Part shown: positions 682 through 39,577 of the stretch, one piece after another | Layout of the letters: each line of letters opens with the position of its first letter | Numbering within the stretch: the first letter of the stretch is position 1 | From: Shigella phage ESh25 | Direction: 5' to 3' (one strand) | Length of the DNA: 64,000 bases | Sequence record: ON528735 | The notes under the pieces: model-generated | The model's input: the letters and a program-made list of their open reading frames with translations, nothing else | Databases searched by the model: none | Told to the model about the DNA's origin: nothing | Position numbers and translations under genes: made by a program

Positions 682-1965
682 ATGGCTAAAATCAACGAAC
701 TTCTGCGCGAATCAACCACAACGAATAGCAACTCAATCGGTCGCCCAAATCTCGTTGCTTTGACTCGCGCTACCACTAAATTAATATATTCTGACATTGT
801 AGCAACGCAAAGAACTAATCAACCTGTTGCTGCTTTTTATGGTATCAAATACCTTAACCCAGACAATGAATTTACATTTAAAACTGGTGCTACTTACGCT
901 GGCGAAGCTGGGTATGTAGACCGAGAACAAATCACAGAATTAACAGAAGAGTCTAAATTAACTCTCAATAAAGGCGATTTATTCAAATATAATAATATCG
1001 TTTATAAAGTATTAGAAGATACACCATTTGCTGATATTGAAGAAAGCGATTTAGAATTAGCTCTTCAGATTGCAATCGTTCTTTTAAAGGTTCGTCTATT
1101 TTCTGATGCTGCAGTAACAAGCAAATTTGAAAACTCTGATAGCGAAATTGCGGATGCTAGATTCCAGATTAATAAATGGCAAACCGCAGTTAAATCTCGT
1201 AAACTTAAAACTGGCATCACAGTTGAATTAGCACAAGATTTAGAAGCAAACGGATTCGATGCTCCTAATTTCTTGGAAGATTTGCTTGCAACTGAAATGG
1301 CGGATGAAATCAATAAAGATATTCTGCAGTCTTTGATTACAGTGTCAAAACGCTATAAAGTTACAGGAATTACTGATACTGGATTCATCGATTTGAGTTA
1401 TGCATCTGCTCCTGAAGCTGGTCGTTCATTATACCGAATGGTATGTGAAATGGTTTCGCATATCCAAAAAGAATCAACTTATACAGCAACGTTCTGTGTT
1501 GCTTCTGCTCGTGCCGCTGCGATTCTTGCTGCATCAGGTTGGTTAAAACATAAACCAGAAGATGACAAATATCTTTCACAAAATGCCTACGGGTTCTTAG
1601 CTAATGGTTTACCGCTTTATTGCGATACTAACAGCCCATTAGATTATGTAATCGTTGGCGTAGTAGAAAATATCGGTGAAAAAGAAATTGTTGGATCAAT
1701 TTTCTATGCTCCGTATACAGAAGGTCTTGACTTAGATGACCCTGAACATGTAGGTGCATTTAAAGTTGTTGTTGATCCAGAAAGCTTACAACCGTCTATC
1801 GGTTTATTAGTTAGATATGCTTTATCAGCAAATCCTTATACCGTAGCAAAAGATGAAAAAGAAGCAAGAATAATTGACGGTGGAGACATGGATAAAATGG
1901 CGGGTCGTTCAGATTTGTCTGTTTTATTAGGTGTTAAGCTACCAAAAATTATCATTGATGAATAA
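682..1965 (+). CDS. 24: Head vertex protein gp24
   Basis: 427 aa, same length as T4 gp24; paralog of gp23; preceded by TATAAATA late promoter and RBS. Confidence 0.9.
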   Translation: MAKINELLRESTTTNSNSIGRPNLVALTRATTKLIYSDIVATQRTNQPVAAFYGIKYLNPDNEFTFKTGATYAGEAGYVDREQITELTEESKLTLNKGDLFKYNNIVYKVLEDTPFADIEESDLELALQIAIVLLKVRLFSDAAVTSKFENSDSEIADARFQINKWQTAVKSRKLKTGITVELAQDLEANGFDAPNFLEDLLATEMADEINKDILQSLITVSKRYKVTGITDTGFIDLSYASAPEAGRSLYRMVCEMVSHIQKESTYTATFCVASARAAAILAASGWLKHKPEDDKYLSQNAYGFLANGLPLYCDTNSPLDYVIVGVVENIGEKEIVGSIFYAPYTEGLDLDDPEHVGAFKVVVDPESLQPSIGLLVRYALSANPYTVAKDEKEARIIDGGDMDKMAGRSDLSVLLGVKLPKIIIDE

Positions 1966-33440: not shown

Positions 33441-34619
33441 TTAAAAATATTTTTTAAAACTCATCATAACTTTATCATCAACATCATTATCAATCTGTGC
33501 AACAAGATAAGATGACAGTTCTACTTCTTGCGGCGCGGATTGAACATTATCAGAATTAAGGTATTCACGAATCCAAGGATATGGATGTTTAACCGGAGCA
33601 TCGGTAATCGGGCATGGAAGACCACACTGTTTCATACGAGATACAGTTAAGTAATCAATAAAGCTCCACATGCTATTTGTATTTAATCCAGGAACATCGC
33701 CATCTTTAAATAAATGAACTGCCCAATCTTTTTCTTGGCGGTTAACTTCCATGAAAATATCAACTGCTTCTTGTTCACACTCTTTGGCAATTTTAACCCA
33801 TTCATCACCATCAGTACCGGATTGAAGTTGACGAATAATATATTGTGTACCTTTAAGATGAAGCTGCTCATCACGTGCAATAAATTTCATAATCTTCGCA
33901 TTACCTTCCATGATTTCCATGTTCTTATGGAAGTTGAAAGTACATGCAAAGGATACATAAAAACGAATAGCTTCCAGAGCATTGATAACGTGCAGACAGA
34001 GATAAAGCGACTTCATCAGGTCTCGTTTACATTCTTCCAAATGAGTGAGACTGTTTGAATATGCTTCTAAATCATATTCATTTTCAGCAAAATAACTAAA
34101 GTTTTCTTTGGCGTTTTCCCAAATACGTGTCTTGTCCAGAACATCATCATAATAACGACCAATAGATTCAGCACGTTTCATGATAGCTTTATCTAATACA
34201 ATCTCATCAAATACCTTTGACGGATCAGTATAAAGATTTCGCATAATATGAGTGTATGAACGACTGTGAATGGTTTCACTAAAAGTCCATGTAGCAACCC
34301 ATGTATCAAGGCTTGGGTCTGAAATCAATGACATAAGTACAGCAGACGGTGCACGACCCTGAATGCTATCTAGAAGTGATTGATACTTCAGATTATTAGT
34401 AAAAATATTCTGCTGATATTGAGGAAGCTTATTAAACTGTGCAGCATCCATCATTAAGTTTACTTCTTCAGGACGCCAGAAAAATGACAACTGCTTTTCG
34501 GTTAAATCTTCAAAAACTTTATGACGTTGAATATCATAACGCGCAATACCAAGACCTGAACCAAAAAACATAGGTTCTTTTAAAACATCAACTGGATTTG
34601 TATTAAAAACTGTGCTCAT
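33441..34619 (-). CDS. nrdB: Ribonucleotide reductase small subunit, uninterrupted
   Basis: 392 aa continuous ORF; no intron. Confidence 0.95.
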   Translation of the reverse strand: MSTVFNTNPVDVLKEPMFFGSGLGIARYDIQRHKVFEDLTEKQLSFFWRPEEVNLMMDAAQFNKLPQYQQNIFTNNLKYQSLLDSIQGRAPSAVLMSLISDPSLDTWVATWTFSETIHSRSYTHIMRNLYTDPSKVFDEIVLDKAIMKRAESIGRYYDDVLDKTRIWENAKENFSYFAENEYDLEAYSNSLTHLEECKRDLMKSLYLCLHVINALEAIRFYVSFACTFNFHKNMEIMEGNAKIMKFIARDEQLHLKGTQYIIRQLQSGTDGDEWVKIAKECEQEAVDIFMEVNRQEKDWAVHLFKDGDVPGLNTNSMWSFIDYLTVSRMKQCGLPCPITDAPVKHPYPWIREYLNSDNVQSAPQEVELSSYLVAQIDNDVDDKVMMSFKKYF

Positions 34620-34670: not shown

Positions 34671-36935
34671 TCATAATTTACAGGATGAACAATCTTCAGC
34701 TTTTGGAGTTTCTATTTCATAATCATCAGTACCAGAACCATCACGGGTATTATGATAATAGAAATTTTTTCCGCCAAAATACCAAAAATACAAAAGGTCA
34801 TCAATCATTATTGACATTGGAACCTTTCCTTTTGGAAAAATCTGCGGGTCATAATATGTATTCGCTGAAGCTGATTGACATACCCATTTCAGCATAATAG
34901 CTACCTGCGTAAGATAAGGTTTATTACCTTTCTTAGCTAATTTCCATGTATAATCATATAGGTCTATGTTATGTTCAATATTGGGCACGACTTGATTAAA
35001 GGAACCCTCTTTTGATTCTTTAACAGAGACTGGTCCACGTGGAGGCTCGATACCGTTTGTACTGTTAGAAACTTGGGAAGATGACTCACATGGCATAAGT
35101 GCTGATAATGTGCTATTACGGATGCCAAAGAGCTTAAGGTCTTCCCGCAGCGACGACCAGTCACAAACGTATTTTGGAGCTGCGATTTGGTCAATCTTTT
35201 TATTGTACCAGTCGATAGGTAATTCGCCTCGAGACCAACGAGTGTCTGAATAATATTCACAAGGTCCTTTTTCTTTGGCGAGTTTAATGGATGCTTTAAT
35301 GAGTCCATACTGTAATCTCTCAAATAGTTCATGTGTTAAATCGTTAGCATCTTCATAAGAAGCAAAGTTACTTGCCAACCAAGCTGCATAGTTAGTAACA
35401 CCTACACCGAGGTTACGACGCTTTTTAGCTTTTTCTGCTTCAGGAACTGGATATCCTTGGTAATCCAAAAGATTATCAAGAGCACGAACCTGGACTTCTG
35501 CCAATTCATTAATTTTATCTTGGTCTTGCCAGTCAAAATTATCCAGTACGAATGCAGAGAGAGTACACAATCCAATTTCAGCATCAGGACTATTCACATC
35601 ATTTGTTGGAATAGCAATTTCACAGCACAAGTTACTCTGACGAATAGGTGCCTTTTCACGAATAAACGGAGTATAGTTATTCGTATTATCAATGAACTGT
35701 ACATAAATCCTTGCTGTTCCTGAGCGTTCAGTCATGAGCAATTCAAATAGTTCACGGGCTTTAATACGCTTTTTACGAATATTAGGGTCTTTTTCTGCTG
35801 CTTCGTATAATTCACGGAAACGGTCTTGGTCTTTAAAATAAGAATAATAAAGCTCTCCGCCCATTTCATGGGGACTGAACAAAGTAATGTAATCGTTCTT
35901 TCCAAAACGTTCCATCATCAAATCATTCAGTTGAACACCATAATCCATATGACGAATGCGGTTTTCTTCTACGCCTTTGTTATTTTTCAAAACAAGAAGA
36001 TTTTCAACTTCCAAATGCCAAATAGGATAATAAGCAGTAGCAGCGCCGCCACGAATTCCACCCTGTGAGCATGATTTAACAGCAGTCTGAAAATGTTTCC
36101 AAAAAGGAATAACACCAGTATGGCGTACTTCACCCATGCCAATCTTAGAACCTTCAGCACGAATCATACCAACGTTAATACCAATTCCAGCGCGTTTAGA
36201 GATATATTCAACAATTGAAGCGGAAGCCTTATTGATAGACTTTAATGAATCACCTGCCTCAATAACAACGCATGAACTAAACTGCCGGGTTGGAGTACGG
36301 CAACCAGCCATAATAGGAGTTGGCAATGAAATCTGTCGAGTAGATACTGCTTCATAAAAACGAATAACGTGTTTTAATCTATCAACAGGTTCATCTTGAT
36401 GCAGTGCCATTCCAATAGTCATAAATGCAAACTGCGGAGTTTCATAAATTTGACCAGTGGTTTTATCTTTAACTAGATATTTTTCTTTTAATTGCATCGC
36501 CCCGGAATAAGTAAATTCCATATCCCGCTCGTGCTTAATTTTTGATTCTAAAAATGTAATTTCTTCTGCTGAATATTTTGACAATAATTCAGGGTCATAT
36601 TTACCTTCATTTACACAGTAAGAAATATGGTCAATAAATGAACGCGGTTCATACTGCCCATAAACATGCTTACGAAGAGCAAACATTAAACAACGTGCAG
36701 CTACATATTGATAATCAGGCTCTTCAACCGAAATAGAATTCGCAGCAGCCTTAATGACAATAGTCTGAATATCATCAGTTGTCATTCCATCACGGAGATA
36801 AGATTTAATATTTTCATATAATTCATAAGGATCTACTGATGTTCCTTCAGCTGCCCAAGATAAAACTTTAATAATTTTTTGTGGGTCAAAGCTCTGAGAA
36901 ACACCACTACTTTTGATAACATTAATTAATTGCAT
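34671..36935 (-). CDS. nrdA: Ribonucleotide reductase large subunit
   Basis: 754 aa as T4 NrdA. Confidence 0.95.
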   Translation of the reverse strand: MQLINVIKSSGVSQSFDPQKIIKVLSWAAEGTSVDPYELYENIKSYLRDGMTTDDIQTIVIKAAANSISVEEPDYQYVAARCLMFALRKHVYGQYEPRSFIDHISYCVNEGKYDPELLSKYSAEEITFLESKIKHERDMEFTYSGAMQLKEKYLVKDKTTGQIYETPQFAFMTIGMALHQDEPVDRLKHVIRFYEAVSTRQISLPTPIMAGCRTPTRQFSSCVVIEAGDSLKSINKASASIVEYISKRAGIGINVGMIRAEGSKIGMGEVRHTGVIPFWKHFQTAVKSCSQGGIRGGAATAYYPIWHLEVENLLVLKNNKGVEENRIRHMDYGVQLNDLMMERFGKNDYITLFSPHEMGGELYYSYFKDQDRFRELYEAAEKDPNIRKKRIKARELFELLMTERSGTARIYVQFIDNTNNYTPFIREKAPIRQSNLCCEIAIPTNDVNSPDAEIGLCTLSAFVLDNFDWQDQDKINELAEVQVRALDNLLDYQGYPVPEAEKAKKRRNLGVGVTNYAAWLASNFASYEDANDLTHELFERLQYGLIKASIKLAKEKGPCEYYSDTRWSRGELPIDWYNKKIDQIAAPKYVCDWSSLREDLKLFGIRNSTLSALMPCESSSQVSNSTNGIEPPRGPVSVKESKEGSFNQVVPNIEHNIDLYDYTWKLAKKGNKPYLTQVAIMLKWVCQSASANTYYDPQIFPKGKVPMSIMIDDLLYFWYFGGKNFYYHNTRDGSGTDDYEIETPKAEDCSSCKL

Positions 36936-37252
36936 AAGTCCTCAACTTGAAAATCGTCTTTAAACAATCGGTTAACTATATGAGCTATTATATCACCATG
37001 ACACGGCTTTGGTTTACATGTGCATCCTAGCCTCATTCCACGTAAAGGCTCTAAATGTGCTTTAGTTATTTCTCCGGATTTAATTCGACGTATAAAATCT
37101 TTTTTGAATAATTCAATGGCAGCCTCCCGGCTGCCAGCATCTTTACCGACGTAATTTCCCCAAAATGTACCACGGTGAATATTAACATCAAAGTCGGATT
37201 TATATTTATTCACTACCTGGCATAGACGGCCCGCGCGGTGATAATTCGTCAT
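36926..37252 (-). CDS. Hypothetical Cys/His-motif protein (nrdA.1 position)
   Basis: 108 aa; C-terminal [13 protein letters not shown] cluster suggests metal binding. Confidence 0.6.
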
Positions 37253-37481
37253 ATTGTTTTTCCGTTAAAACAGTAATATCATAGTAACAATCTGAAGAAG
37301 TTTTAACTGTAGAAATTTTATTATCAAAATACTCACGAGTCATTTTATGAGTATAATATTTTTTGCCATAAATGATAATAGGCTGATTTGGTCCTGGAAC
37401 TTCTAACTCGCTTGGATTAGGAAGTGTAAAAAGAACTACACCAGAAGTATCTTTAAATCGTAAAATCATATATCCTCGCAA
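37206..37481 (-). CDS. Hypothetical protein (nrdA.2 position)
   Basis: 91 aa ORF. Confidence 0.55.
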
Positions 37482-37492
37482 TTAAATTAAAA

Positions 37493-38353
37493 TTATACCG
37501 CCATTTTTCCTTTCAAGACACCGTGGGACTGATAATCTTTGAGAACGAAATCTTTAGGCCTGAGTTTAAGAACATATTCCAATTGTTCTTTAGTAGAAAG
37601 ATAGCGGAATTTATAAGGCAATCCGCCTATTACCAGTTCACAAAGCTCTTTAGGTTCACGACGCAAAATTTCTTTACATTGTTCTACGTGATTCATATAG
37701 ATATGAGTATTACCGCCAGAAAATATCAAATCTCCAGGAATAAGATTACACATCTTAGCTACAATATGAACTAACGCAGCATATGATGCAATATTAAATG
37801 GAAGACCAAGAAAAACATCTACTGATCGTTGATACCACTGCAAATCCAAATAGCCATTACGCACATTAAACTGATAGAACATATGACAAGGCGGTAATGC
37901 CATATATTTAAGTTCAGCTGGATTCCACGCAGAAACAATTTGTCGCCTATCATTCGGCAGTTTTTTAATACGATCAATAACTTCTACAATTTGGTCTACA
38001 CCGCCAAAATCACGCCATTGTTTTCCATAAATTGGACCAAGTTCACCGCTATGGTATCCTAAATCTTTTGCTTGATTTTCGTAATTTTCATCCCAGACTG
38101 TTTTGCCTTGAATTAATGAATCATGCTGAATTAATCGTAAATCATTGACATTTATGCTTCCTGATAAAAACCAAAGTAGCTCAGCAATGCAAGCTTTCCA
38201 GGCGAGCTTTTTAGTTGTTACTGCAGGAAAACCTTTACTTAAATCCCAGCGTAATTTAGTACCGAACAAAGCAATTGTTCCTGTGCCTGTTCGATCATCG
38301 GTTTCATAGCCATTTTCAAAAATGTCTTTAATTAAATCTTGGTATTGTTTCAT
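37493..38353 (-). CDS. td: Thymidylate synthase, uninterrupted
   Basis: 286 aa continuous ORF; active-site PPCH motif; no intron. Confidence 0.95.
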   Translation of the reverse strand: MKQYQDLIKDIFENGYETDDRTGTGTIALFGTKLRWDLSKGFPAVTTKKLAWKACIAELLWFLSGSINVNDLRLIQHDSLIQGKTVWDENYENQAKDLGYHSGELGPIYGKQWRDFGGVDQIVEVIDRIKKLPNDRRQIVSAWNPAELKYMALPPCHMFYQFNVRNGYLDLQWYQRSVDVFLGLPFNIASYAALVHIVAKMCNLIPGDLIFSGGNTHIYMNHVEQCKEILRREPKELCELVIGGLPYKFRYLSTKEQLEYVLKLRPKDFVLKDYQSHGVLKGKMAV

Positions 38354-38398
38354 TTAGTACCTTATATAAATTATAATACATTTTATGAAGCTAAATAA

Positions 38399-38746
38399 TC
38401 AATACGGTTTAGCATCAAATTTTCTTTCGATTTCAGGAGTGAAATATAATTCTTTACCGCGTTTAGAAAAGCGACCAATAATATGATAATTATTCTCATC
38501 AAACGTGATATTACCAATATCCATAGCTTTCAACCAAATATCGATATTTCTATCCAGCTTTATGTCAAAATTCCAATACGGAGAACTATTACCGAAAATA
38601 CTGCAAGCGGATTCAGTAAAACAACTACTATAAATCTTATCTTTAGGAACTACTAATTGATAGACACCTTTAATAAACTGAGGACCCTGCCACTTTGGCT
38701 GTTTCGCGTCTTTTTCTAATAGAATAGGATAATAATTAAAGTTCAT
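38399..38746 (-). CDS. Hypothetical protein inserted between frd and td
   Basis: 115 aa ORF with no recognisable motifs, filling a junction that I recall as contiguous in T4. Confidence 0.6.
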   Translation of the reverse strand: MNFNYYPILLEKDAKQPKWQGPQFIKGVYQLVVPKDKIYSSCFTESACSIFGNSSPYWNFDIKLDRNIDIWLKAMDIGNITFDENNYHIIGRFSKRGKELYFTPEIERKFDAKPY

Positions 38747-38765
38747 ATTTTCCGCCAGTGTTATT

Positions 38766-39577
<812 letters not shown>

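Follow-up and report, generated by a model that had tools for sequence, protein, structure and literature searches.

In the reference annotation of phage T4 (NC_000866), the gene for dihydrofolate reductase, frd (145109-145690), runs directly into that for thymidylate synthase, td, whose coordinates end at 145112, and the stop and start codons of the two genes overlap by 4 nt (ATGA). The T4 annotation has no gene at this junction, and T4 td is itself split by an intron with I-TevI. The original prediction for the DNA studied here had described the T4 overlap correctly, and had proposed that an extra 115-aa ORF (hereafter ORF115) was inserted between the two genes at a landing site for mobile or accessory genes. 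The closest described relatives of ORF115 are the other members of PHROG 1928, among them the T2 and RB-phage proteins named 'RB32ORF229c' and hypothetical proteins of T6, RB3, RB14, RB51, PST and PM2, which together form a family with neither an assigned function nor a solved structure. The T2 and RB copies occupy the same frd-td position as ORF115. The gene is in this sense already known, and hundreds of records list it under 'RB32ORF229c' or simply as a 'hypothetical protein'; a literature search found no paper that mentions ORF115 or PHROG 1928.

Mobile genes and cassettes of T-even phages offer further points of comparison. The T-even homing endonuclease genes I-TevI, SegG and MobE, which are found at gene junctions of the same region, are likewise variable among T-even phages and likewise lie in the nucleotide-metabolism cluster, but ORF115 differs from them in having no nuclease domain, in its predicted fold, and in its conserved position across genera. 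The PeSL cassettes and other indels of T4-like genomes (Arbiol 2010; Comeau 2014, PMC4122927) also involve a small ORF that may be present, absent or swapped for an unrelated one. However, in PeSL cassettes it is the variable ORF that is flanked by promoter plus stem-loop elements (the motif is defined in PMC4122927 as an early promoter plus a stem-loop), whereas the frd-td junction has one promoter-like element beside ORF115. Assignment of the gene to this class was rejected, as there is a single weak sigma-70-like match downstream of ORF115 and neither of its spacers folds better than shuffled sequence. The boundary of the ORF115 segment is a 9-bp direct repeat, which fits the recombination between short chance homologies that Comeau et al. 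(PMC4122927) also name as a non-cassette route for indels.

The window, by which we mean the whole analysed stretch of 64,000 nucleotides from Shigella phage ESh25 (ON528735), carries ORF115 closely packed among frd, td and nrdA, all of them reading in one direction (Table 1). The original prediction's description of the locus, a 348-bp ORF and short spacers lying between frd and an unbroken td, is borne out by the ORF list and by the sequence, and the gap from the td start to the frd stop (38354-38765) measures 412 bp. The shorter spacer contains a weak Shine-Dalgarno-like GGCGGA and a mini-frame, ATG-AAA-TAA, that overlaps the frd stop. The longer spacer contains an AAGG ribosome-binding site for td, together with a sigma-70-like match (TTGATT-N18-TATTAT, 38402 to 38373, 9/12 positions in a consensus scan) whose first hexamer overlaps the ORF115 stop and which we regard as a putative promoter. 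RNA folding compared with shuffled sequence gave z=-1.15 for the 45-nt spacer and z=+1.8 for the 19-nt spacer, indicating no significant structure in either, and Rfam returned no credible match for a non-coding RNA. The Frd protein of the window has 85.6% amino acid identity to that of T4 and T2, versus 96-97% to the IME537 and ZN18 alleles. No further copy of the PHROG 1928 family was found within the 64-kb window.

Table 1. Features of the frd-td junction, with positions counted from the first nucleotide of the window
Feature	Position	Strand	Description
td (thymidylate synthase)	37493-38353	minus	286 aa; single unbroken ORF, intron-less (ORF list and sequence)
9-bp direct repeat TAAATGAAA, downstream copy	38348-38356	minus	Covers the td start codon
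ORF115-td spacer	38354-38398	minus	45 nt, from ORF115 stop to td start
ORF115	38399-38746	minus	115 aa, ATG start, 348 bp with stop; PHROG 1928; orthologue of T2 'RB32ORF229c'
frd-ORF115 spacer	38747-38765	minus	19 nt, AATAACACTGGCGGAAAAT, from frd stop to ORF115 start (read from the sequence)
9-bp direct repeat TAAATGAAA, upstream copy	38764-38772	minus	Covers the final codon of frd and its stop
frd (dihydrofolate reductase)	38766-39350	minus	194 aa

Across the phage records compared, the frd-td junction is polymorphic, with ORF115 as the majority state and the T4 arrangement as a minority state. A tblastn search of the phage collection identified ORF115 homologues in 588 records, 362 of them at 90% amino acid identity or more and 226 at less than 60%. 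The high-identity carriers include T2, T6, RB3, RB5, RB6, RB7, RB9, RB10, RB14, RB18, RB27, RB51, PST, AR1 and wV7, and the more distant matches are mainly in T4-like phages of Klebsiella, Enterobacter, Citrobacter, Serratia, Erwinia and Salmonella. The empty, T4-type junction was detected with a 44-nt T4 junction probe in just 32 records, about half of which are T4 itself or near-identical stocks such as T4T, RB55 and RB59. A third allele is an unrelated 68-aa ORF (PHROG 9550), found in about 135 records at 90% identity or more, whose start overlaps the frd stop and whose stop overlaps the td start. When the junctions of T2, T4, T6 and the RB phages are compared, T2, T6 and the RB phages named above as carriers have ORF115, whereas T4, like RB55 and RB59, has the empty site. 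The tblastn match counts suggest that T4 has no copy elsewhere in its genome either.

These counts bear directly on the idea of an extra gene at a mobile-gene landing site, which is not supported: ORF115 is the majority state by 362 records to 32, the same slot is filled in other genera, and the locus has neither a nuclease or recombinase signature nor a stem-loop cassette. The proposal of variable cargo survives in its first word, since three alleles occupy the T-even junction, and fails in its second, ORF115 being the usual resident of the site and not an unusual passenger. Conversely, the expectation opposed to it, that T4 and most of its relatives would share the ORF, is wrong for T4 and right for most of the relatives. 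T4 should not be taken as the model for this junction, where the occupied slot is the common and the old state.

Homologues are found in the frd-td slot of at least seven further genera, as well as on metagenomic contigs of T4-like phages. The synteny set comprised five named genera, each with a homologue after frd (Jiaodavirus JIPh_Kp122, Mosugukvirus PM2, Gelderlandvirus Melville, Kanagawavirus ZX14 and Marfavirus VAC36), ten IMG/VR contigs (L015-L024) and a number of metagenome contigs. In all the non-Tequatrovirus phage loci inspected that had both flanks visible, frd is followed by one or more family members and then by td. The homologue of ORF115 (copy A) lies directly after frd, usually overlapping the frd stop, and in most of these loci it is followed by a second ORF of about 115-150 aa (copy B) before td is reached. 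Copy B is a paralogue of copy A (hhalign probability 98%) and also belongs to PHROG 1928. A homologue of the 68-aa gene (gene C) forms a third member of the array in L015, L016, VAC36 and contig L036; most often the genes run frd, copy A, paralogue B, in some cases gene C, and then td. Contig L036 is the closest non-Tequatrovirus relative in which the whole array is visible: its copy A is 63% identical to ORF115, and the array also includes a B paralogue and a C gene with 82% identity to the 68-aa ORF of Tequatrovirus. The genes of these other genera overlap, whereas ORF115 in Tequatrovirus has spacers of its own. In one exception, P0024 (locus L028), the family member sits away from frd and td, beside RlaP and regB-type genes, and the position of the family is thus not obligatory.

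The explanation that we favour overall, with a probability of about 60%, is that ORF115 is an old-resident accessory gene of the frd-td slot and that T4 lost it by deletion; a binding role for its product is proposed with lower confidence. Because homologues occupy the slot across genera, the slot is old and the T4 overlap is most likely derived; the comparison shows ORF115 to be a long-standing resident and not a recent or self-mobile insertion. The older layout would have been a tightly overlapping series of frd, A, B, an optional 68-aa C, and td. From such a layout Tequatrovirus would have inherited reduced arrays, retaining A only (the window, T2 and T6, and the majority of phages), C only, or none (T4 and a few others). 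Since contig L036 carries both A and C, the Tequatrovirus alleles look like alternative reductions of one array.

Within Tequatrovirus, ORF115 is highly constrained. It is identical to the T2 copy at the amino acid level (100%), and the two genes differ by 12 synonymous and 0 non-synonymous substitutions. Among Tequatrovirus pairs divergent enough to measure, its pN/pS is 0-0.06; for the same genome pairs the values are mostly 0.10-0.27 for frd and 0.04-0.22 for td, both above that of ORF115. Judged by these substitution patterns, ORF115 is a genuine gene under strong purifying selection, better conserved than its enzyme neighbours. It is also a typical PHROG 1928 protein (hmmscan E=8.4e-36, with residues 4-111 aligned to positions 2-125 of the 126-position profile), with the family motifs LLExDxxQ(K/P)KW, (H/K)G(I/V)Y and GN(I/V)xF...IIGRFxKxGxxxxFxP all present, and nothing sets the window copy apart from other members.

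T4 has no ORF115 at the junction, so the gene is dispensable in the laboratory and probably confers a conditional advantage. One possible form of that advantage, which we rate as plausible but short of probable, is that of a host-takeover or counter-defence factor that neutralises a host protein or a defence system, and that some phages retain and others lose depending on the hosts they meet. Many small prereplicative genes of T-even phages bind and neutralise host proteins, and ORF115 would be at home among them: it is small, phage-restricted, dispensable, present in some phages and absent from others, and replaced in some by an unrelated small ORF, and tandem paralogues exist. Variable accessory genes of phages are, moreover, often anti-defence genes (bioRxiv 10.1101/2023.04.06.535777); however, ORF115 is absent from the text and supplements of that accessory-gene screen. 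The position of ORF115 is also fixed and not scattered across a variable island. Arms-race genes are usually fast-evolving, and the near-invariance of ORF115 within Tequatrovirus argues against such a role.

T4 is the outlier at this junction, most likely because 416 bp were deleted between the two TAAATGAAA repeats, leaving the textbook frd/td overlap. The repeat copies lie exactly 416 bp apart, and in silico loss of one copy together with the intervening DNA (416 bp) yields the exact 44-nt T4 junction; the reconstructed junction is the 44-nt probe, which matches T4 at 100%, and the repeats were also located by aligning the window with T2, T4 and IME537 across the junction. Short direct repeats are classical sites of deletion. 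This strand of the window has 8 copies of the nonamer, versus about 1.4 estimated from base composition. It is a common stop/start motif, and much of the repeat is dictated by the coding sequence for the end of Frd and the beginning of Td. Taken alone, the repeat would be equally compatible with an insertion.

An insertion would reverse the polarity of events: the T4-type overlap would be ancestral, and a 416-bp ORF115 cassette would have entered it recently and then spread by recombination. The 9-bp repeats bounding the segment could be the scar of such an event, three alleles are present at the site, and ORF115 comes with its own spacers and a promoter-like element where other genera have overlapping genes. 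Such indels are, furthermore, documented in T4-like genomes (PMC4122927). Patterns of divergence also lend the idea some support. ORF115 is 99-100% identical among Tequatrovirus phages whose frd alleles are about 85% and td alleles 84-97% identical, with frd and td differing by 8-11% per non-synonymous site (14-16% of residues). Between divergent Tequatrovirus lineages, its synonymous divergence is below that of its flanks (pS 0.14-0.24, versus up to 0.60 for td and up to 0.36 for frd). Outgroup homologues are 26-66% identical to ORF115, and over 21 loci these values do not follow the corresponding frd identities (Spearman -0.78); correlations bearing on vertical co-divergence of ORF115 with frd and td were inconsistent. 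Together with the gene's own spacers, the low pS and the untracked outgroup identity leave room for re-introduction or recombinational spread, and this scenario, of a cassette that re-entered Tequatrovirus or spread across it, is what survives of the original prediction, as a minority view. Against an ancestral overlap stand the homologues in the same slot of at least seven other genera and of metagenomic T4-like phages, as well as the rarity of the empty junction (32 records versus 362). The segment has no mobility gene or nuclease motif, its flanks have no stem-loop cassette signature, and the repeat is largely imposed by frd and td coding. We therefore consider recent insertion unlikely and retain deletion from an occupied slot as the preferred history.

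The protein itself has few relatives that inform on function. The original prediction saw no recognisable motifs in ORF115, and searches concur: there was no match in Pfam or in the PADLOC defence models at E<=10, none in NCBIfam, and none among PDB sequences better than E=0.56, leaving PHROG 1928, annotated as of 'unknown function', as the sole match. Searches of Pfam and PDB sequences with family profiles were likewise empty. HMMER against 1.84 billion representative proteins recovered 20 genuine clusters, all of them single-domain phage proteins of 95-116 aa; two longer matches, P0021 and P0023, were discarded as repeat artefacts. A profile search with the A and B copies added longer variants of 142-148 aa and no domain fusions. 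Every homologue context examined was a T4-like phage and none was seen in a cellular genome, which shows the family to be restricted to T4-like phages.

Structure prediction by AlphaFold2 reached pLDDT 61 with a 4-sequence alignment and pLDDT 92 (pTM 0.84) with a 23-sequence family alignment. The latter model begins with strands at residues 6-12 and 27-34 and three short strands, which are followed by a helix at 68-76 and by strands at 80-82, 86-96 and 99-104, predicting a single domain of about 13 kDa that is mostly beta with one helix. The modelled order of strands and helix resembles that of an OB fold. The best Foldseek match in the PDB has E=0.48 and none is significant, and the predicted fold thus appears to have no relative among solved structures; the weak structural matches are dominated by OB folds (HIN, Teb1, Cdc13, S1, SSB, RPA and RuvA domain I), and matches in BFVD are confined to uncharacterised proteins of T4-like phages, including phages of Serratia, Erwinia and Aeromonas. 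Residues Q16, W19, G27, G91, K95 and G97 are invariant in both the 23- and 33-sequence alignments, and Y29, F93 and F102 are nearly so. In the AlphaFold2 model, Q16 and W19 fall between the first two strands and G91-G97 in or around the last beta hairpin; the conserved residues as a group gather in the loop joining strands one and two, in strand two itself and in the final hairpin. The pI of most family members is mildly basic, at about 8-9.

Our tentative best guess, held at rather less than even odds, is that ORF115 encodes a small protein, expressed early in infection, that acts by binding and is not an enzyme. The gene would be transcribed in a prereplicative unit, early, alongside the enzymes of nucleotide-precursor synthesis, and in other genera the homologues would be translationally coupled to frd and td. 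With no catalytic motif in the protein, binding is the most likely mode of action. OB folds bind single-stranded nucleic acid or other ligands at the loop and hairpin positions described above. The order of elements in the ORF115 model (strands, one helix and a terminal beta hairpin) resembles that of OB-fold binders of single-stranded nucleic acid (SSB, RPA, S1 and HIN domains), and a further point of likeness is that its conserved aromatic and basic residues fall within the loop after the first strand and the final hairpin. Because these residues lie at OB-like ligand positions, a single-stranded nucleic acid or a nucleotide-like ligand would be the likeliest target, the main alternative being a protein partner. 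The positive charge of the family is only mild, an observation that weighs against the proposed binding mechanism.

The neighbouring enzymes are candidates for such a partner. ORF115 could bind Frd, Td or both, or their mRNA, and act as adaptor or regulator, either in the synthesis of dTMP or in the complex of enzymes that make dNTPs. The near-universal adjacency of the family to the genes for dihydrofolate reductase and thymidylate synthase points in this direction, as do the start/stop overlaps seen in many genera, which imply co-transcription and translational coupling. However, T4 and the phages with the 68-aa allele have functional Frd and Td with no ORF115 at the junction. Additionally, ORF115 remains constant while frd and td alleles vary by 8-16%, with no sign of co-adaptation, and one family member resides beside RlaP/regB-type genes instead. 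Gene order is broadly inherited in T4-like phages, and adjacency is on that account weak evidence. On balance a functional partnership with Frd and Td seems improbable, if far from negligible. A more specific version, which we regard as doubtful, holds that PHROG 1928 is an unrecognised, distantly OB-like fold family working with the dihydrofolate reductase-thymidylate synthase pair, e.g., as an adaptor that is an A/B heterodimer (a homodimer in phages of the T2 type) or as an RNA-binding regulator of thymidylate synthesis, and that it went unstudied because T4 deleted it.

A small or degenerate homing endonuclease is very improbable. The idea derives from the record of phage FriedrichMiescher (Bas39), which labels an identical copy 'putative homing endonuclease', the one GenBank record to do so; ORF115 is, moreover, close to td, a known homing site, and the HGIY family motif bears a superficial likeness to the GIY of GIY-YIG enzymes. 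Yet no GIY-YIG, HNH, LAGLIDADG or other nuclease match was found in Pfam, either for ORF115 at E<=10 or for 23 family members at E<=1, and hhalign against I-TevI gave a probability of 0.9%, with a chance 11-column alignment of HGIY and GIY. The predicted fold, mostly beta with one helix, is also not the alpha/beta fold of GIY-YIG enzymes, and synteny is stable. A link between ORF115 and the td intron was considered and rejected: ORF115 is found with the intron (L011) and without it (the window), and T4 has the intron without ORF115. A spurious ORF in a non-coding spacer, as the interval left unannotated in the early T2 record (AY310907) might suggest, is refuted by the substitution pattern, in which 12/12 differences from T2 are synonymous; in addition, the family is conserved across genera and its structure is predicted with confidence.

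ORF115 is one of many conserved T-even genes that have gone unstudied because T4 lacks them. The finding is an ordinary one and implies no new kind of system; its points of some value are the probably derived T4 junction, the old A-B-C array, a degree of conservation above that of the enzyme neighbours, and an unmatched predicted fold. By virtue of its conservation, its fixed position, the tandem paralogues present in most genera and a predicted fold with no solved relative, the gene is a reasonable, though not an urgent, target for study. As to the genome that carries it here, the window is that of a mosaic Tequatrovirus, to which no record in the phage collection is identical. Salmonella phage Jbel is identical to it (100%) across 751 bp around ORF115 and 96.6% identical across 22 kb, and the nrdB-nrdA junction differs between the two.

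The frd-ORF115-td locus of the window is a recombination mosaic. Its dihydrofolate reductase gene, frd, is 85.6% identical at the amino acid level to T4/T2 frd and 96-97% identical to frd of IME537 and ZN18, while the adjoining 115-aa gene, ORF115, is 100% identical to its T2 counterpart, and the thymidylate synthase gene, td, shows approximately 97% identity to T2/T4 and 84% to Bas39 (phage FriedrichMiescher).

The frd/td junction also varies in gene content. In approximately 135 records, the position of ORF115 is taken by an unrelated 68-aa ORF belonging to PHROG 9550, a family annotated as of unknown function; in some other genera, this gene is the third (C) in a frd-A-B-C-td array, in which A is the ORF115 homologue and B a paralogue. 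Small early ORFs of Phapecoctavirus (phAPEC8) also include homologues of the 68-aa ORF (43% identity), there without frd or td in the vicinity. In one metagenomic contig (L027), the corresponding interval carries ORFs of 148, 106, 95 and 76 aa, of which at least the 148-aa and 95-aa ORFs match PHROG 1928, the ORF115 family; the array is thus capable of expansion as well as shrinkage. Presence of ORF115 is independent of that of the td intron, since one compared locus (L011) has both and T4 has the intron alone. In phage Shinka, only ~314 nt separate the two td exons, so td there may contain an intron devoid of the I-TevI ORF.

The spacer between ORF115 and td holds a sigma-70-like match with a MotA box-like AGCTTCA close by. 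Judged by its sequence, this candidate element could provide a separate td promoter in phages that carry ORF115, unlike in T4, where td is coupled to frd.

Coordinates of features in the window and in compared loci
Feature	Locus	Position	Strand	Remarks
nrdB	window	33441-34619	-	392 aa, uninterrupted
nrdA	window	34671-36935	-
nrdA.1 homologue	window	36926-37252	-	DUF4326, E=1e-21
nrdA.2 homologue	window	37206-37469	-	DUF5496, E=2e-59
td	window	37493-38353	-	intron-less
TTGATT-N18-TATTAT	window	38373-38402	-	consensus match, ORF115-td spacer
ORF115	window	38399-38746	-	PHROG 1928
frd	window	38766-39350
76-aa ORF	window	39347-39577	-	PHROG 4308 (unknown function), between frd and frd.1
68-aa ORF	L009 (IME537)	1654-1860		frd/td junction
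68-aa ORF	L008 (Shinka)	1654-1860		frd/td junction
td	L008 (Shinka)	474-1666
68-aa ORF relative	L036	4670-4879
68-aa ORF relative	L025	2365-2571
68-aa ORF relative	L039	2992-3225
Four small ORFs	L027	3245-4518		DHFR-to-thymidylate synthase interval, metagenomic T4-like contig

The nrdB-nrdA junction is a further variable site within the same cluster: the two genes lie 51 nt apart in the window, with neither the nrdB.1 and mobE of T4 nor the 243-aa hypothetical ORF of Salmonella phage Jbel between them. The nrdA.1 and nrdA.2 homologues, which match domain-of-unknown-function (DUF) families, are conserved small genes on the flank of td opposite ORF115. With the 76-aa ORF overlapping the start of frd, the cluster differs from that of T4 by another small gene besides ORF115; T4 has no equivalent gene, whereas the equivalent position in T2 is annotated RB32ORF231c.
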